The translations under genes were made by a program, and so were the position numbers. 64,000 nt of DNA, taken from assembly GCA_035291545.1 (NCBI GenBank), contig DATDRW010000069.1:2348-66347 (forward strand), in the 5' to 3' direction. Source of the stretch: Acidimicrobiia bacterium. Lineage in GTDB: Bacteria > Actinomycetota > Acidimicrobiia > Spongiisociales > UBA11373. Below the pieces are notes generated by a model. It saw only the letters and a program-made list of their open reading frames with translations. It ran no database searches and was not told where the DNA came from. Below are positions 10,347 to 29,246 of the stretch, one piece after another (positions within the stretch are counted from its first letter, which is position 1; every line of letters begins with the position of its first letter).

Positions 10347-11504
10347 CCACGCCGCCACCTGATCGACGTCCTTGTCGCCGCGGCCACTCAGGCACATCAC
10401 GACCGTCTTGTGGGCGAGCGCGACCCGTTCCCGGGCGATCCAGGCGAGGGCGTGCGCCGGTTCCAGCGCCGGGATGATGCCTTCGGTACGGCACAGCAGG
10501 TCCATGGCGGCGACGGCTTCGCGGTCGGTGGCCGACTCGTAGCGGGCGATGCCGGCGTCCTTGAAGTAGGCATGTTCCGGCCCGACGCCGGGGTAGTCGA
10601 GCCCCGCCGAGATCGAATGCGCCTCGAGCACCTGGCCCTCATCGTCCTGGAGCAAGTAGGTGCGGGCACCGTGCAATACGCCCGGCGAACCGGCGGAGAG
10701 CGATGCACCGTGGCGGCCGGTGGCGATTCCATCGCCTCCCGCTTCCACACCCACCAGTCGGACCCCGCTGCCGACGAACGGGTGGAACATGCCCATGGAG
10801 TTCGACCCGCCCCCGACGCAGGCGACCACGACATCGGGTACCCGGCTCCCCAGTTGAGCGATCGTCTCCTCCCCGATCACCCGTTGGAACTCGCGCACGA
10901 TCCAGGGAAAGGGGTGGGGGCCGACCACCGAGCCGATGATGTAGTGCGTCGTCTCCACGGTGGCCACCCAGTCCCGGAGGGCGGCACTCACCGCATCCTT
11001 CAGGGTCCCCGCCCCCGACGTCACCGGGGTCACCACGGCGCCGAGCATCCGCATCCGTTCCACGTTGAGGGCCTGGCGCCGGATGTCGACCTCCCCCATG
11101 AACACCTCACACTCGAGCCCGAGGAGGGCACAGGCGGTGGCGGTGGCCACCCCGTGCTGGCCGGCCCCGGTCTCGGCGATCACCCGCGGTTTGCCCATCC
11201 GCTGGGCGAGCAACCCCTGCCCGACCGTGTTGTTGATCTTGTGTGCGCCGGTGTGGGCGAGATCCTCCCGCTTCAGCAGCAGATCGATCCCCAACTCCGC
11301 AGACAACCGTCGTGCCGGATACAGCGGCGTCGGTCTCCCCACGAAGTCCCTCAGCAGTGCAGCCAGCTCCGACTGGAATCCGGAGTCGGCGACGGCGGCG
11401 ACGAATGCCGACTCCAGTTCGGCGAGCGCCGGCATCAGCGTCTCCGGGGCGAACGCTCCCCCGTACTCCCCGAACCGCCCGCGGTGGTCGGGTCGAGCCG
11501 TCAT
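10332..11504 (-). CDS. trpB: Tryptophan synthase beta chain
   Basis: From [16 protein letters not shown] onward, ORF 10332..12245 has the PLP lysine motif HTGAHKINN and GGGSNSMG. The ATG at 11504 overlaps the trpF stop as ATGA. The 247 aa upstream of it is a shadow read across trpF. Confidence 0.9.
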
Positions 11505-18205: not shown

Positions 18206-18532
18206 ATGCCGACCATTGCCGAATGGCATCAGTTCGCGGTCCGCACCGGGATCGTCGTACGCGCCGAGGCCAACGAGGCGGCGCGTCATCCGGCCTACCG
18301 GATGTGGATCGACTTCGGGGACCTCGGCATCCTCCAATCCTCCGCAAAGATCACCGACCACTACCGCGCCGCCGAGCTGGTCGGCACCCAGGTGATCGCC
18401 GTGACGGGGTTCGCCCCGCTCCACGTCGCCGGGTTTCGATCGGATGTGCTCGTGCTCGGCGCCCTCACCGACAGCGGGGTGGCGCTGGTGCGTCCCGACC
18501 GGCCGGTTCCACCCGGCAGCACGATCGCTTGA
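18206..18532 (+). CDS. CsaA-like tRNA-binding domain protein (Trbp111/MetG C-terminal domain fold)
   Basis: From MPTIAEWHQFAVRTGIVVRAE...GTQVIAVTGFAPLHVAGFRSDVLVLGA, the pattern matches CsaA/tRNA-binding OB-fold proteins. The start was trimmed from ORF 18116 because ccdA overlaps there. Confidence 0.5.
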   Translation: MPTIAEWHQFAVRTGIVVRAEANEAARHPAYRMWIDFGDLGILQSSAKITDHYRAAELVGTQVIAVTGFAPLHVAGFRSDVLVLGALTDSGVALVRPDRPVPPGSTIA

Positions 18533-19785
18533 CCCGGCTGGCGCTGCTCCGCCCCTCGCGACCGCTCCAGCGTCGCGAGACCGCGGCCCTCGCCCTCTTT
18601 GCGCTCATCGCCCTCGCCCAGGGCTGGACGGGTGCCGCCATCACCCACGTCCTCCCCTTCGTCCAGGACGACTACGCGCTCAGCGACGCCGAGGTGTTCG
18701 ACCTGATGACCGTCATCCGGGTCACCTCGCTCCTCGCCATCGCCTTCTCCTGGTGGGGTGATCACCGCGGGCGCCGGATGCCCCTGCTGCTGGCGTTTGC
18801 ACTGCTTCCGACGGCGACGCTGCTGAGCGCCGTCACCTCCGGCGCCGGGATGCTGACCGCGACCCAGGCGGCGGCCCGGGTCGGGACCATCGCCATCAGC
18901 GGCCTCGCCCTGGTCGTGCTTGCCGAGGAGGTCGGCCCCGAGGTGCGCGGCTACGCGGTCGGCATCTACGCCCTGGTCGGCTCGATGGGGACGGGCCTGG
19001 GACTGGCGCTCCGTCCCCTGGGTGCGGGTGACACCGACGGGTGGCGCGTGCTGTTTGCCCTCAGCGCGGTGCCGCTGCTCGGTCTGCCCCTCCTCGTCCG
19101 CCGACTTCGTGAGTCGAGGGCTTTCACCCCTCAGCCGTCGCGTCCACGCCTGACCGCGGTGCTCCGCGGCACCCATGCATCCCGGTTTTGGCCGCTTGCG
19201 GGACTGTCGTTTGCGGTGTCGGCCTTCACCGCTCCCGCAGCCAACCTGGCGTTGGTTCGATTGGAGAACGATCTCGGCTGGTCGGCGGCCGGCGCCTCGC
19301 TGCTCCTGGCCGCCACCAGCGCCCCCGGGGTGATCCTGGGAGTGCTCGGCGGCGGCCGTCTCGCCGACGTCTTGGGACGGCGGCCGACCGAGGCCCTCTC
19401 GCTGGTGGTGGGCGTGGCGGGCGGCTTTGCCTTCTACCTGATCGATGGGGGCTGGATGATGGCGGCGGGAGTAGGTGTGTCCAATCTCGGAGCGTTTGCG
19501 TTCGCTCCGGCGTTCGCCGCGCACCGGGCAGAGTTGTTCCCCACCGGGATCCGGGCCACCGCCGTCGCCTGGATCGTGAACGCATCGATCCTCGGAGGAA
19601 TCGCCGGGTTCGCCGCCGGAAGGTTCGTCGTCGACGCCTGGGGGATCTCCGGCACGGTCGCCGCACTCGGGGTCCTGGTGCTCGCCGCCACCGCGTTGAT
19701 CGCACCGCTCCCCGAGACCAGGGGACTCATCCTGGAGGTGAGCGGAACGGACCCCTCGGGCTCACCCTTCTCCATGCCAGGGTGA
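18531..19785 (+). CDS. MFS-type transporter
   Basis: This is the C-terminal roughly 418 aa of the artefactual 982-aa ORF 16837..19785. It has 10-12 predicted transmembrane segments with Gly-rich loops. The TTG start overlaps the csaA-like stop as TTGA. Confidence 0.55.
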
Positions 19786-24052: not shown

Positions 24053-24934
24053 GTGACCAGGACATCCCTCGCCGTGCTCTCGCTCGTGCTCGCCGCATTT
24101 CTGTTCGGAGCGACCTTCGTCGTGGTGAAGGATGCGATAACCGCACTGCCTCCCCTCGGGTTCGTCGGGTGGCGCTTCACCATCGGTGCCGCAGTACTTC
24201 TCGCCGTGTCCCGCCCCAAGGCCCGTCAGGCCGCGATCGCCGGCATCGTCGGCGGATTGTGGCTGTTCGCCGGATACGCCTTTCAGACGAAGGGCCTCGT
24301 GACCACCACCGCCTCGAACTCGGGGCTGGTCACCGGGCTCTACGTGGTATTCACCCCGCTGCTCGCCGCCGCGGTGGGACGGCGCCGTCCTCGCCCCCTC
24401 GTGGTCACGGGTGCGCTGGTGGCGTTCGGCGGGCTGGCCGTCCTCACCATGTCGAGCACGCTCACGCTGCAGAGCGGCGACCTGTCGACGATCGCCGGCG
24501 CAGTCGGCTTCGCCGGCCACATCGTGTACCTCTCCCGGGTGGCACACCGGTACCCGGTCGTCGCTTTCACCGGTGTCCAACTCGCCGTGGTCGGGGTCCT
24601 GGGGCTGACCTCGTCGGCCCTTTTCGAGGACTTCACCCTCCCCGGATCCGAATCCGTCACCGCGCTCCTCGTCACCGGGATCGCAGTCGGCGCCGGCGCC
24701 TTCCTGCTGCAGGTGTGGAGCCAGACCGTGCTCGGTCCTTCTCGAACCGTACTGATCCTCGCTCTGGAGCCGGCATTCGCCGCGCTCACCGGGGCGGTCG
24801 TGCTCGGAGAGCGGCTCGGAATGCGCGGCGGCATCGGTGCCCTCCTCATCCTCGCCGGGATCTATGTCGTGCTCACCGCCACCGGGCCGGAAGACGACCT
24901 ACCCACGGCCGAGTCGCTCTCGGCCGCCCACTGA
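24053..24934 (+). CDS. EamA/DMT-family transporter
   Basis: It has 10 transmembrane segments forming two EamA repeats, and the N-terminus LAAFLFGATFVVVK is typical of the family. Confidence 0.7.
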   Translation: MTRTSLAVLSLVLAAFLFGATFVVVKDAITALPPLGFVGWRFTIGAAVLLAVSRPKARQAAIAGIVGGLWLFAGYAFQTKGLVTTTASNSGLVTGLYVVFTPLLAAAVGRRRPRPLVVTGALVAFGGLAVLTMSSTLTLQSGDLSTIAGAVGFAGHIVYLSRVAHRYPVVAFTGVQLAVVGVLGLTSSALFEDFTLPGSESVTALLVTGIAVGAGAFLLQVWSQTVLGPSRTVLILALEPAFAALTGAVVLGERLGMRGGIGALLILAGIYVVLTATGPEDDLPTAESLSAAH

Positions 24935-25210
24935 AGGGTCGAGCGCATCGTCGTCCCGCCGCTGTTCGGCGATAGACCGCACGTGGAGCGCAGCCCGCAG
25001 CGCCACCAGCAGCAAGAACAGCACCAGTCCGAGCACGGCGAGGAGTTCCGGGCCGTCGAAATACGACGTGTGGCAGGCACCGATCCCCCCGGTGCAAAGC
25101 CCGAACCCATCGCCGCCTCCGGCGAGATCGAGCAGCACGATCAGCGGCAGCAAGGCCGCCGCCACGATCCCCACAATGATGCCGATGACGAGGATCCGGA
25201 TCGAGGTCAC
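24899..25210 (-). CDS. Possible small membrane protein. It overlaps the eamA 3' end and the call is weak.
   Basis: It has a GTG start and one long hydrophobic stretch. No family is recognised, so it may be a shadow ORF. Confidence 0.2.
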   Translation of the reverse strand: MTSIRILVIGIIVGIVAAALLPLIVLLDLAGGGDGFGLCTGGIGACHTSYFDGPELLAVLGLVLFLLLVALRAALHVRSIAEQRRDDDALDPSVGGRERLGRG

Positions 25211-25353
25211 GGGGCAACGGTAGAACGGTTGGCGCCTTTGTCGGGGACACCCGGGCCGGCACCGGGGACAAGTCGACCGCCGGTCCCTCCTCCGATTGCC
25301 AGCGGCTACCCACGGCGGTACCGTCGCCGCACGGTGAATCACAAGCGTGTGAG

Positions 25354-27000
25354 ATGACCTCGGCGTCGACCTTCTATCAAGAGCCCTTCAGCGGGGACGA
25401 GGCCGCACTCCTCGGTCGCTACTTCACCAACACCGACGGCCCGGTCTTTGCGCTCATCAACCTCCCTGAAGTCGTCAAGGGTGCCCTCTTCGCCCGCTAC
25501 AGCCGCAGCCCCAAGTCGTTGCGGAGGCTGTTCCTCGACGAGTTCTCGGCGGCACCCGAGGTTGGGATCGGTGAGATCGCCGGGGCCCTCGGTGCCGAGG
25601 ACGGCACGGTCCGGATGGCCCGGGCTGAAGAGTTGTACGCCAGAGTGTTCAACCAGTACGGGGACGACTCGGTGGCCCAACTCGGGGCGATGCATCTCGC
25701 CTGCGAGCAGGCATCGAACGTGCTCACCAAGGTGCTCGAGTGGGGCCGCCTGGCCGCATACCTCGAACAGAGCACTCGCTACATGTTCTACGACGAGCGC
25801 CTCGGCGGCCGCTACCGCTACCGAGTCCCACCGGAGGTGGCCGGCTCGAGCCTGGAGGCCGACTTCACGAAGACCCTCGATTCCCTGTTCACCACCTACG
25901 GTGCGCTCACGCCCGGCCTGACGACCTACTACGAGACGCTATTCCCCAAGGCGGAAGGCGACTCGGGATTCGTGTACCGCAGCACGATCCGCGCCAGGGT
26001 GTGCGACGACCTCCGCGGCCTGCTCCCGGCCGCCACGATCTCCAACGTCGGCATCCATGGCTCCGGACAGGCCTTCGAGATGCTGCTCCTGCGGATGCGG
26101 TCGCATCCGCTCGCCGAGGTGCGCAGCTACGCCGATCTCATGCTCACCGAGCTGCGCAAGGTTGCCCCGGCCTTCCTCCGCCGGGTCGACGTCCCCGACC
26201 GCGGGGGCGACTGGTCGCGCTATCTCGAAGAGACCGCGGCAGCGATGCGCCTCATTGGTCGAGAATTCGACGCCACCCCACCCGACCGCCCCGAGGTGAC
26301 CCTCGTGGAGTGGGATCCCGAGGCGGAGGCCAAGGTCGCCGCAGCAGCGCTCTATGCGGTCACCGATCTCCCCGACGACGTGCTCCTCGAGCGGGTGCGG
26401 GCACTCCCCGCGACGGAACGGCTCCGGCTCATCACCGGCTACACGGGCGACCGCCGCAATCGCCGTCACAGGCCCGGAAGGGCGTGGGAGCGCACCGGCT
26501 ACCGGTTTGACATCCTGTGCGACTACGGCATCTTCCGCGACCTGCAGCGCCATCGCATGCTCACGATCGAGTGGCAGCGGCTCGGCACCCACCATGGGTT
26601 CATCGTGCCTCCGTCGATCGACGAGCTCGGCGAGCAGACACGCTGGCGAGAGGCGATGGAGGGCGCGGCCGTGCTCGCCGGTCGGCTGGCTGCAGCGCTC
26701 GGTCCCGAGGTCGCCCAGTACGCGGTCCCCTTCGCCTACCGGGTTCGCTTCGTCATGCAGCTCAACGTGCGCGAGGCGCTTCACCTCCTGGAACTCCGTA
26801 CTGCGCCGGGCGGGCACCCCGACTACCGCAGGGTATGCCAGGAGATGCATCGCCTGATCCGCGACCAGGCGGGACATGTCGCGCTCGCCGAGGCGATGCG
26901 GTTCGTCGATCACTCCGACACTGATCTGGGGCGCCTCGACGGCGAGCGGCGGGCCGCGGCCAGACGCGCCGCCGCCGGGGTGGGCGATCCCGACGACTAG
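25354..27000 (+). CDS. Tandem-duplicated ThyX-like protein (548 aa) from the FAD-dependent thymidylate synthase (Thy1) family. It is an intragenic fusion of two ThyX domains.
   Basis: Half 1 has the ARYS N-motif. Where canonical ThyX reads RHRIASYNELSGRY, half 1 reads WGRLAAYLEQSTRY. It also has the C-motif LRMRSHPLAEVRSYA. Half 2 has FRDLQRHRMLTIEWQRL, with RHR intact but the Ser..RY lost, and LRTAPGGHPDYRRVCQEM. Confidence 0.6.
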   Translation: MTSASTFYQEPFSGDEAALLGRYFTNTDGPVFALINLPEVVKGALFARYSRSPKSLRRLFLDEFSAAPEVGIGEIAGALGAEDGTVRMARAEELYARVFNQYGDDSVAQLGAMHLACEQASNVLTKVLEWGRLAAYLEQSTRYMFYDERLGGRYRYRVPPEVAGSSLEADFTKTLDSLFTTYGALTPGLTTYYETLFPKAEGDSGFVYRSTIRARVCDDLRGLLPAATISNVGIHGSGQAFEMLLLRMRSHPLAEVRSYADLMLTELRKVAPAFLRRVDVPDRGGDWSRYLEETAAAMRLIGREFDATPPDRPEVTLVEWDPEAEAKVAAAALYAVTDLPDDVLLERVRALPATERLRLITGYTGDRRNRRHRPGRAWERTGYRFDILCDYGIFRDLQRHRMLTIEWQRLGTHHGFIVPPSIDELGEQTRWREAMEGAAVLAGRLAAALGPEVAQYAVPFAYRVRFVMQLNVREALHLLELRTAPGGHPDYRRVCQEMHRLIRDQAGHVALAEAMRFVDHSDTDLGRLDGERRAAARRAAAGVGDPDD

Positions 27001-27060: not shown

Positions 27061-27294
27061 TTAGCCGGCCAGCGGGATACGCAGCACCAATCGATCCCCC
27101 TCGACCGCCGCCTCGGCGTCTGCGATCAGCGAGTAGTCGACGAAGTCCTGCTGCGCCGACGCCAGGAAGCGGCGGCGGGCCTCCCCCTCCAGGGGCGGCA
27201 CACCTCGCTCCTTGACGGCGGCGGCGCGGTCGCGGAAACGCTTGCGGAAAACGTCGATGTCGAACTCGGCCACGTTCCTCCCCGACGGCTTCAC
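27061..27294 (-). CDS. Hypothetical small protein (77 aa)
   Basis: It is a clean ORF with protein-like composition, and no family is recognised. Confidence 0.35.
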   Translation of the reverse strand: MKPSGRNVAEFDIDVFRKRFRDRAAAVKERGVPPLEGEARRRFLASAQQDFVDYSLIADAEAAVEGDRLVLRIPLAG

Positions 27295-27387: not shown

Positions 27388-28242
27388 ATGAGAGCGGTGC
27401 TGAACCGACGGCTGCTGCTGGTCACGGGCAAGGGAGGCACGGGCAAGAGCGCCGTGGCCGCCTCGCTGGCCGTCGCCGCCGGCCGGCGCGGATTGCGGGT
27501 CCTCGCCCTGGCGATGGACCATGGAGCCGGCCTGGCCCGTCACCTCCGGGCCACCACGCTCGGTCCGGCACCACAACGCTGCGGAGACGTCCACGTCGCC
27601 GTCGTCGACCCGGTCGCCGCCCTCGACGAGTACCTGCGGATGCGGGTACGGGTGCCCCGCCTGGCCGCGGTGAGCCGGGTCTTCGCCGCGGTCGTCGAGA
27701 CCGTGCCCGGTGTGCGTGACACCACCATGATCGGGAAGGTCGTCTTCGAGTCGACGCGCCCCCGGTGGGATCTCGTCGTTGCCGACGCTCCCCCGACCGG
27801 GCAGGTGTCCTCCTTCCTCGAGGCCCCGGCGACCATCGCCGGCCTCGTCCCCGGTGGCGCCGTCCGCGACCAGGCCGCGTGGATGCGTTCCGTGTTGGCC
27901 GACCCTCAACACACCGGACTCGTCGTCGTCGCCACACCGGAGGAGTTGCCGGTGACCGAGGCGAAGTCGTTCATGGCCGGGGTCACCGCGAGCCGTACCG
28001 CCGCCGTGGCGGCGTCGGTGGCCAACAAGGTGCTGCCGGCGCCCGATTTCGACGGTTCCGCTCTTGCCGGCACCACCGACTCGTCGAGCCGCCAGGCGGG
28101 CGCACTCCACCTCGCCCTCATCGAACGACAACAGGGCCACCTGATGGACCTGAAGGCGGATCGCACCATCCCGTTCCTCTTCGGGATGCGCACGGCCGGT
28201 GAGACCACAGAGCGCATCGCCGACCTCTGGGGGACGGTTTGA
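27388..28242 (+). CDS. ArsA/Get3-family ATPase, the first gene of an adjacent pair.
   Basis: It has the deviant Walker A VTGKGGTGKS and an ArsA-like core (DAPPTG). It is the same architecture as the mycobacterial Rv3679. Confidence 0.75.
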   Translation: MRAVLNRRLLLVTGKGGTGKSAVAASLAVAAGRRGLRVLALAMDHGAGLARHLRATTLGPAPQRCGDVHVAVVDPVAALDEYLRMRVRVPRLAAVSRVFAAVVETVPGVRDTTMIGKVVFESTRPRWDLVVADAPPTGQVSSFLEAPATIAGLVPGGAVRDQAAWMRSVLADPQHTGLVVVATPEELPVTEAKSFMAGVTASRTAAVAASVANKVLPAPDFDGSALAGTTDSSSRQAGALHLALIERQQGHLMDLKADRTIPFLFGMRTAGETTERIADLWGTV

Positions 28243-29246
28243 CCCGGGTCACCCTCGTCATGGGCTCGGGCGGGGTCGGAAAGACGACGATCGCGGCCGG
28301 TCTCGCCGCATTGTCGGCGCAGCGGGGGTCACGCACCCTGGCGATCACGGTCGACCCGGCGCGTCGCCTCGCCGACGCCTTGGGGGTGGCGGTCGGCCTC
28401 GATCCCGGGGCCGTTGCCGGCTGGCCGCGACTCGATGCCTCCATGCTCGACGCCGCCGCCGCGTGGGAGAGCATCGCCCGTACCCACGCCGACACGGCCA
28501 CCGCGGCACGGCTCCTCACCAACCCGTACTTTCGAGCGGTCGCCGACCGCTTCCCGTCGGGCCAGGCCTACGCCGCCGGCGAGGAAGTCCTTCGTCATGC
28601 CCACGGCGGTTCTTACGACCACATCGTGGTCGACACCCCGCCGGCCGACGGGGGCCTGACGTTTCTCGCTGCACCGCGCAACATCAGGACCCTCATCGCG
28701 GGACGGGCGCTCCGCCTCCTCACCGGTCCCCGTCTCCCGGGGCGCCGACTCATCTACTCGATGACCGCCCGCCCCGCGTTGATGATCGCCGACTCGGTGC
28801 TCGGGGGCCGCCTCCTCGAGGACGTAGCCGAGTTCTTGCTCGACCTGAGCACGATCTACCCCGGGGTCGCCCGGAGGTCGCGCGAGGTGGAGCGTCTGTT
28901 CTCCGCGGCGACGATCGTTGCGGTGGCAACGCCCGATCCGGGGCCGATCGCCGAGGCCCGGCGGCTCATCACGGATCGGATCGGCACCACCGACTCGCCG
29001 CAAATCATGGTGTTCAACCGGGTGCTCCCCCCGGAATGGGCGAGCGCTCCCAGAGCCGCCGACCCGATCGGCGCCAACCTGCAGCGCTGGGCGGCCGAGG
29101 CGAGCCGCCACGACGCCCTGCGACGCGCCTTCGCCGCCAACACCGGCGTCAATCCTTTGACCATCCCCTGGTTGCCCGAGGCCCCCGGCACTCCGCAAGG
29201 GCTCGCCGACTTGATGGCCGCCGCCGGACTCGAACCCCTCAGCTGA
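28239..29246 (+). CDS. ArsA/Get3-family ATPase, the second gene of the pair.
   Basis: The P-loop is MGSGGVGKTT and the core is VDTPP. The TTG start overlaps the first gene's stop as TTGA. Confidence 0.7.
   Translation: MTRVTLVMGSGGVGKTTIAAGLAALSAQRGSRTLAITVDPARRLADALGVAVGLDPGAVAGWPRLDASMLDAAAAWESIARTHADTATAARLLTNPYFRAVADRFPSGQAYAAGEEVLRHAHGGSYDHIVVDTPPADGGLTFLAAPRNIRTLIAGRALRLLTGPRLPGRRLIYSMTARPALMIADSVLGGRLLEDVAEFLLDLSTIYPGVARRSREVERLFSAATIVAVATPDPGPIAEARRLITDRIGTTDSPQIMVFNRVLPPEWASAPRAADPIGANLQRWAAEASRHDALRRAFAANTGVNPLTIPWLPEAPGTPQGLADLMAAAGLEPLS

Follow-up and report, generated by a model that had tools for sequence, protein, structure and literature searches.

The stretch of DNA analysed here, hereafter called the window, comprises 64,000 nucleotides of contig DATDRW010000069.1 from an Acidimicrobiia bacterium (assembly GCA_035291545.1), and the gene in question is an open reading frame (ORF) at 25354..27000 of its forward strand, encoding a protein with two consecutive domains of the ThyX family of flavin-dependent thymidylate synthases (FDTS). 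An earlier note, made from the letters of the window, had read this ORF as a tandem-duplicated ThyX, and the coordinates, strand and length that it gave were the same as in our ORF listing: the frame starts with ATG and runs uninterrupted through 548 amino acids plus a stop. Its GC content by codon position (0.71/0.48/0.86, that is 0.86 at the third against 0.48 at the second position, in a genome of roughly 70% GC) is typical of a real gene. We consider, with a probability of about 0.75, that this gene specifies a flavin-dependent thymidylate synthase in which two anciently duplicated and fused ThyX domains divide the active-site residues between them. The protein is laid out as follows (all on the forward strand).

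25354..27000: whole ORF, fused double-ThyX protein (ORF listing, Pfam Thy1, full-length homologues).
25411..26199, amino acids 20-282: half 1, ThyX domain, putative "subunit C role", dUMP-binding side (Pfam, profile alignment to Mycobacterium tuberculosis ThyX).
26200..26295, amino acids 283-314: linker, a long helix (281-303 in the structure model) followed by a loop; lowest conservation of the protein, 0.17.
26296..26913, amino acids 315-520: half 2, ThyX domain, putative "subunit A role", FAD and uracil-activating side (Pfam, alignment to Helicobacter pylori and Thermotoga maritima ThyX).

The whole protein matched Pfam PF02511 (Thy1) with 138.8 bits in two stretches, the gathering cut-off being 24.8 bits. 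When the halves were scanned separately, amino acids 1-279 scored 62.9 bits (E 4.5e-17) and amino acids 280-548 scored 79.7 bits (E 3.1e-22), both above the cut-off and far beyond chance, in agreement with the proposal of two consecutive ThyX domains. The two halves showed no significant likeness to each other by BLASTP (E 0.078), although their family profiles aligned in register using hhalign (129 columns, 16% identity, E 7.5e-5); thus the duplication is real but ancient. A search of the Protein Data Bank (PDB) with the single sequence gave nothing useful, and the relation surfaced with family profiles: that of half 1 aligns to residues 47-230 of M. tuberculosis ThyX (E 7.5e-16), and that of half 2 to the H. 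pylori and T. maritima enzymes (E 3e-7 to 2e-6).

The fold of the protein was also examined. The AlphaFold2 model describes a confident two-domain unit (predicted local distance difference test score, pLDDT, 87.9; predicted template modelling score, pTM, 0.86), and in a Foldseek comparison with the PDB all the significant matches were ThyX chains, with probability 1.0 and a template modelling score (TM-score) to the target of 0.6-0.73, no unrelated fold being found. The matched structures, namely ThyX of M. tuberculosis, Thermus thermophilus, T. maritima, Corynebacterium glutamicum and the virus PBCV-1, together with PolB, are all chains with a single ThyX domain; no fused ThyX form was found in the PDB by either the family-profile or the Foldseek searches.

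Residues of each half were then placed on the known enzymes. Conservation was counted over 478 sequences in four sets (Acidimicrobiia-like proteins, representatives at 50% identity, proteins of bacteria from the Candidate Phyla Radiation (CPR) and of DPANN archaea, and fusions to the thymidylate kinase Tmk), and the percentages given below are ranges over these sets. The T. maritima (Tm) numbering is that of its ThyX sequence as checked against the PDB alignment; Mtb denotes M. tuberculosis numbering. All the strings quoted by the earlier note (ARYS, WGR, EQSTRY, RDLQRHR and QRLGT) are present, at the positions given in the following lines (forward strand).

Amino acids 47-50, half 1: ARYS.
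25660..25671, amino acids 103-106: GDDS, replacing the canonical G-H-x-S/T loop (alignment to Mtb ThyX).
25741..25749, amino acids 130-132: WGR, at the RHR position of half 1 (column counts).
25765..25782, amino acids 138-143: EQSTRY, dUMP-binding loop (alignment; roles as in PMC6514825).
26014..26028, amino acids 221-225: RGLLP (alignment to Mtb "AARAVLP").
26458..26490, amino acids 369-379: NRRHRPGRAWE, a basic loop replacing the canonical His53 loop (alignment to Tm and H. pylori ThyX).
26536..26556, amino acids 395-401: RDLQRHR, with an intact RHR motif (alignment to Tm Arg78-His79-Arg80).
26575..26589, amino acids 408-412: QRLGT, where the Ser-x-Arg-Tyr loop of half 2 would lie; the loop is lost here (positions 409-413 counted).
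26713..26721, amino acids 454-456: AQY, with Gln455 at the position of Tm Arg147 ("evAqYvvPl" against Tm "EVARIVLPL").
26764..26817, amino acids 471-488: NVREALHLLELRTAPGGH, holding Asn471, Arg473, Arg482 and His488 (alignment; 86-100% conserved).

The counterparts of the individual catalytic and binding residues are these.

Tm His53 (Mtb His69): half 1 D104 (94-100% Asp); half 2 no clear counterpart.
Tm Thr55 (Mtb Ser71): half 1 S106 (97-100%); half 2 R376 (96-100%).
Tm Glu58: half 1 Q109; half 2 E379 (97-100%).
Tm Arg74: half 1 K126 (85-100%); half 2 R395 (58-100% Arg, otherwise Lys).
Tm Arg78 and His79: half 1 W130 (W/R/D/E) and G131 (G/S/A/H), both variable; half 2 R399 and H400 (97-100%).
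Tm Arg80: half 1 R132 (97-100%); half 2 R401 (97-100%).
Tm Glu86, Ser88, Arg90 and Tyr91 (Mtb Gln103, Ser105, Arg107 and Tyr108): half 1 E138, S140, R142 and Y143 (94-100%); half 2 lost.
Tm Arg147 (Mtb Arg172): half 1 R221 (100%); half 2 Q455 (64-100%).
Tm Asn163: half 1 S237 (S/N/T); half 2 N471 (86-100%).
Tm Arg165: half 1 Q239 (Q, R in the CPR/DPANN set); half 2 R473 (92-100%).
Tm Arg174: half 1 R247 (an Arg in this protein, R/K/H across the family); half 2 R482 (94-100%).
Tm His178: half 1 H251 (variable); half 2 H488 (92-100%).

At the signature motif, half 1 reads WGRLAAYLEQSTRY, lacking R-H, and half 2 reads RHRMLTIEWQRLGT, lacking S-x-R-Y, each being an incomplete version of the contiguous motif RHRxxSxxxxSxR(Y); the ThyX motif is complete only when both halves are combined. 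In half 2 positions 409-412 are variable across the family in the four sets, while in its basic loop region R367, R370, R376 and E379 are conserved at 94-100%. The assertion that both halves keep the C-terminal motif was correct in part: Arg221 of half 1 (in R..LP) and Arg482 of half 2 (in ELR) are there, half 2 has Gln455 instead of the other arginine, and position 247 of half 1, an arginine in this protein, varies as R/K/H in the family. The equivalents of Arg147 and Arg174 are thus not both family-fixed in any one domain, R221 being in half 1 and R482 in half 2; Arg221, like Tm Arg147, is presumably the arginine that holds the dUMP phosphate. The window protein carries all the marks of the subfamily (ExSxRY, R..LP and xxR in half 1; RHR, NxR, ELR..H and the glutamine in half 2), which are conserved at 86-100% in the four sets excepting Gln455, present in 64% of the 50% representatives.

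The mean pairwise identity across the family is 0.40 for half 1, 0.36 for half 2 and 0.17 for the linker, which points to a similar constraint on both halves. Since the complementary pattern is family-wide and the halves are about equally conserved, we read it from these alignments as a fixed specialisation across the 478 sequences, which come from Acidimicrobiia, Chloroflexota and the CPR and DPANN lineages, neither recent nor a decay, and the word "decay" used in the earlier note has to be dropped.

Canonical ThyX is formed by four identical subunits of 210-250 amino acids. Each of its four active sites lies between three of them, referred to as A, B and C; in the M. tuberculosis enzyme the phosphates and ribityl of FAD are held by R95-H96-R97 of subunit A and by Ser71 and Arg190 of subunit B, while dUMP is contacted by Arg95 and Arg199 of subunit A and, from subunit C, by Arg87, Ser105 and Arg107, the Tyr108 of that subunit forming a lid (PMC6514825). 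The RHR motif and the C-terminal arginine of subunit A serve the uracil as well as the phosphates and ribityl of FAD. Comparably, in the PBCV-1 structure one monomer contributes Gln75 and Arg182 and the other Ser88/Gln89 (PMC3498832), and both Arg199 of M. tuberculosis and Arg182 of PBCV-1 belong to the subunit that bears RHR (PMC6514825, PMC3498832). The residues kept by each half of the window protein fit this three-subunit geometry: half 2 retains the set of subunit A (R399, H400, R401, N471, R473, R482 and H488), and half 1 retains that of subunit C (E138, S140, R142 and Y143), as well as R221. The mapped dUMP and FAD contacts occur each once per chain and are near-invariant, with the exception of Mtb Arg87: the corresponding residue is Asn122, and Lys126 follows after one turn of the helix. 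This allocation of the A set to half 2 and the C set to half 1 supports, as far as sequence can, the idea of a pseudo-heterodimer with fewer composite sites, and the reciprocal loss on which that idea was built.

From the homology, fold, residue map and family-wide fixation observed above we infer the oligomeric state, site number and catalysis of the enzyme. It would convert dUMP to dTMP with methylenetetrahydrofolate (CH2-H4folate), FAD and NAD(P)H, as enzymes of the ThyX/FDTS type do, and two chains would assemble into a ThyX-like pseudo-tetramer. With half 2 acting as A and half 1 as C, such a particle would contain two complete sites instead of four, and the two reciprocal sites would be vestigial; given the D2 symmetry relations among the four sites, any placement of half 2 as A and half 1 as C would give two complete and two vestigial sites. 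Each chain of 548 amino acids would then carry one FAD and one active site. In all likelihood the enzyme operates as a ThyX does, using half the number of sites.

The architecture is not peculiar to this genome. In a homologue search at least 8000 proteins had E <= 0.001, and those listed have the double-ThyX arrangement in common. The best 120 are 531-697 amino acids long (mostly 540-560) and 65-100% identical, homologues at 65-86% identity aligning over 95-100% of the length; the named ones are called either "thymidylate synthase ThyX" or "FAD-dependent thymidylate synthase" and come from metagenome-assembled genomes (MAGs) of Acidimicrobiia and other Actinobacteria. When 1.84 billion cluster representatives were searched exhaustively with HMMER, 4427 reached E <= 0.001; at E <= 1e-30 there were 966 representatives at 50% identity. 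Proteins of 510-560 amino acids from bacteria and archaea still align over their full length at identities as low as about 35%; the named bacterial members belong to Chloroflexota, Dormibacteria, Ferrimicrobium and Woesebacteria/Patescibacteria, and the named DPANN archaeal ones to Aenigmarchaeota, Micrarchaeota and Woesearchaeota. The family is also found in CPR and DPANN lineages of small genomes, where it is annotated as thymidylate synthase. When a single genome of each GTDB species was scanned, at least 598 stretches matched, the best 80 of which are mostly from Acidimicrobiia, including Microthrixaceae, Ilumatobacteraceae and Iamiaceae.

Some members of the family are fused to further enzymes. 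An N-terminal thymidylate kinase precedes the double-ThyX module in three distinct representatives (P0208, P0215 and P0219), and the same fusion recurs in at least 120 clusters of 768-795 amino acids with PF02223 and PF02511 (including P0406-P0524), the named ones being from Ca. Saccharimonadales and labelled just "dTMP kinase". Moreover, an N-terminal dUTPase precedes the module in P0224 and P0281 (703 and 704 amino acids), from two contigs. Both kinds of fusion retain the same complementary residue pattern. The product of dUTPase is dUMP and the substrate of thymidylate kinase is dTMP, so that the two kinds of fusion are a strong argument for conversion of the one into the other by the double-ThyX module.

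Other members are irregular. P0207 and P0231 have lost nearly all the catalytic residues in both halves (for example, RHR being replaced by RFP or SRA, and S-x-RY being gone) and may be inactive paralogues with another role; judged by residue content, not every family member is necessarily active, the window protein having the full residue set. P0226 (644 amino acids) has a DSHCT (helicase C-terminal) domain followed by a partial Thy1 match, an arrangement that is either genuine and unusual or a chimera made by gene calling. We also considered whether "half-length" database matches represent separate subunit genes and rejected this: one is a fragment on a 1-kb low-coverage contig, and the other, at L085:986-2592, is a frameshifted copy in which one ORF matches amino acids 12-183 and the next 248-538, so that short matches of this kind are taken as fragments or errors. 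Finally, five loci (L014, L018, L028, L029 and L059) come from MAGs labelled Gammaproteobacteria, Bifidobacteriaceae, Bifidobacterium breve or Burkholderiales, with genes 59-63% identical to that of the window; these labels are probably binning or labelling errors and not the true hosts.

Several observations weigh against a thymidylate synthase with split sites. The whole protein scored 59.6 bits with the NCBIfam thyX equivalog TIGR02170, below its cut-off of 87.9, and the single halves 28.3 and 34.3; by this score, and by the failure of the contiguous motif, the protein, although it has the ThyX fold, lies outside the canonical single-domain equivalog. The residues of the B role are divided ambiguously, Ser106 belonging to half 1 and Arg473 to half 2, and Gln239 of half 1, which is Arg in the CPR/DPANN set, adds to this ambiguity. 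The equivalent of His53 is Asp in half 1 and has no clear counterpart in half 2; this histidine is important in T. maritima for the handling of folate and flavin, so that cofactor handling may differ in the fused protein. The low equivalog score, the lack of a contiguous motif in both halves and the replaced His53, together with the new conserved basic loop NRRHKPGR, would also be expected of a neofunctionalised flavoenzyme of ThyX fold that acts on another substrate (for instance UMP or dCMP, as PolB, or another nucleotide) and does not make dTMP for DNA, an alternative already raised in the earlier note. PolB (4p5a/4p5b) is indeed among the sequence and fold matches, the ThyX-MsrB fusion offers a ThyX-like domain that is not a thymidylate synthase (PMC6211008), and the title of a PDB entry calls the C. 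glutamicum ThyX not required for thymidylate biosynthesis. However, the dUMP and FAD contacts are near-invariant save for that of Mtb Arg87, the match to canonical ThyX is stronger than that to PolB (E 2.8e-7 against 7.9e-4), the gene lies in a housekeeping location with no biosynthetic gene cluster nearby, and the module is naturally fused to dUTPase and dTMP kinase, the enzymes that act directly before and after thymidylate synthase; given these fusions above all, we regard a change of substrate as improbable.

A second alternative maintains thymidylate synthesis and gives the reciprocal sites a new task, such as NAD(P)H binding or a regulatory nucleotide, labour being divided by type of site. 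It draws on half-1 invariants that go beyond the C role (G103-D104-D105-S106, R48/S50/R51, K126 and R132) and on half 1 being as conserved as half 2; the pockets formed by these residues and the NRRHKPGR loop of half 2 would then be a distinct site for NAD(P)H or an allosteric nucleotide. If that were true, flavin reduction or regulation would take place spatially apart from methyl transfer within one particle, and the reductive half-reaction of ThyX, which is still debated, would be naturally dissected. The reciprocal site nevertheless lacks the Ser/Arg/Tyr residues, the first two residues of RHR and a fixed C-terminal Arg, and the conserved residues of half 1 may be structural or serve the B role, so we hold both the repurposing and the site that it predicts to be doubtful. 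Degenerate members such as P0207 and P0231, and the frameshifted copy in one related contig, might further suggest a decaying duplicate, a pseudogene or an artefact of assembly or gene calling that joins two neighbouring thyX genes. This explanation is refuted by the uninterrupted ORF with coding-type third-position GC, by the full-length homologues in bacteria and archaea, by the "lost" positions being fixed instead of drifting, with all catalytic residues intact in the window copy, and by the confident two-domain model.

The gene of this putative split-site thymidylate synthase lies, on its neighbours, in the core chromosome: the window contains coaE, rpsA, polA, nadE, trp genes, dnaE, pfk, ileS, sepF and ftsZ, as well as the mur/ftsW/mraY/ftsI/rsmH (division and cell wall, dcw) cluster, and scans of its genes detected no biosynthetic or natural-product gene cluster around the double-ThyX gene. 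The local gene order (EamA transporter, small ORF, two ArsA-like ATPases and dnaE) is kept in two long related contigs, this conserved synteny being functionally uninformative. No thyA, folA, tdk, tmk or dut was found in Pfam scans of about 40 window genes, a set that leaves out the stretches 18216..19727 and 10494..11501; the latter, between trpA and trpF, probably holds trpB. Likewise, tblastn with E. coli ThyA and FolA and T. maritima ThyX found none of them in the window or in 82 loci (1.4 Mb), and the Tmk and dUTPase domains of the fusion proteins had no tblastn match in the window or in 83 related loci, negatives that do not extend to the remainder of the genome. The features next to the gene are as follows.

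24899..25342, reverse strand: ORF of 147 amino acids, without Pfam match; its start lies on the opposite strand at a distance of 12 bp from that of the ThyX gene.
27061..27294, reverse strand: ORF of 77 amino acids, convergent with the ThyX gene, without Pfam match.
27388..28242 and 28239..29246, forward strand: consecutive genes for ArsA/ParA-like P-loop ATPases, overlapping by 4 nt, between the ThyX gene and dnaE.

The related contigs have an ORF of 96-103 amino acids at the place of the 147-residue one, so its true start is probably further in, which probably leaves a shared divergent promoter region. The ORF of 77 amino acids is conserved in sequence and position in both related contigs (L001 11680-11889 and L002 11667-11888, reverse strand in each), where the ATPase pair is also syntenic.

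Compared with the canonical homotetrameric ThyX/FDTS (T. maritima TM0449, M. tuberculosis Rv2754c, H. pylori and PBCV-1 A674R), whose fold is common to each half, the fused protein has almost all of the FAD and dUMP contacts and presumably an unchanged chemistry, with active sites that are likewise expected to be composed across subunit interfaces. It differs in having one chain with two diverged domains in place of four identical subunits, the motif RHRxxSxxxxSxR divided between these domains, two predicted complete sites per pseudo-tetramer against four, a replaced His53 loop and a score under the TIGR02170 cut-off. The UMP/dUMP methylase PolB of Streptomyces cacaoi (PDB 4P5A/4P5B) and the atypical ThyX of C. 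glutamicum (3FNN) and T. thermophilus (6J61, with an extra C-terminal domain) have the ThyX fold too; unlike the fused protein they are single ThyX domains in homotetramers, and they match less well than canonical ThyX does, PolB also ranking below M. tuberculosis ThyX in Foldseek. The Tmk- and dUTPase-ThyX-ThyX fusions of CPR bacteria have the same module and identical complementary residues, and in addition an N-terminal domain that the window protein lacks.

A laboratory precedent for the split would be the work of Leduc et al. 2004 (PNAS 101:7252), in which complementary inactive ThyX mutants reportedly regained activity as mixed heterotetramers. There each type of subunit is said to supply part of the site, a logic like that of the natural split, although those heterotetramers are mixes of point mutants of a homotetramer and the window gene is a natural fusion. 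The ThyX of Chlamydia trachomatis, CT632, is presumably about 529 amino acids long, twice the normal length, and may belong to the fused family; Griffin et al. (2005, J Biol Chem 280:5456) reportedly showed that it is active. No chlamydial name appears among the named members of the family clusters looked up, and Chlamydia is taxonomically distant from the Acidimicrobiia source of the fused gene. By NADPH-oxidation assay the C. trachomatis ThyX is an active FDTS (PMC3498832), and chlamydial ThyX proteins were so atypical that a phylogeny of 2002 omitted them (PMC6171736). If CT632 belongs to the fused family, the activity of the double-ThyX architecture is already established.

In full-text literature searches no account turned up of a ThyX that is fused, tandem or pseudo-tetrameric, or of a complementary split, and a search for the motif strings themselves gave nothing relevant. 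The family is large and databases already annotate it automatically as FAD-dependent thymidylate synthase, which weakens the claim of novelty made for the gene; what stands of it is the split, on which we found no publication. The protein is a widespread and already catalogued variant of a well-known enzyme, apparently not described mechanistically, and for a housekeeping enzyme annotated as ThyX the gain is thus in detail of mechanism and evolution, with no new type of system behind it. As a target for antibacterials ThyX has sites built across three subunits, and a natural single chain whose catalytic residues are divided between diverged domains would be a ready-made asymmetric ThyX, permitting mutagenesis of one site at a time, tests of cross-talk between sites and of whether four sites are needed. 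In Saccharimonadales, where the fusion is labelled just "dTMP kinase", thymidylate synthesis can be overlooked. The fused form appears to be the form of this enzyme in Acidimicrobiia, Chloroflexota, CPR bacteria and DPANN archaea, which are large and poorly studied lineages.

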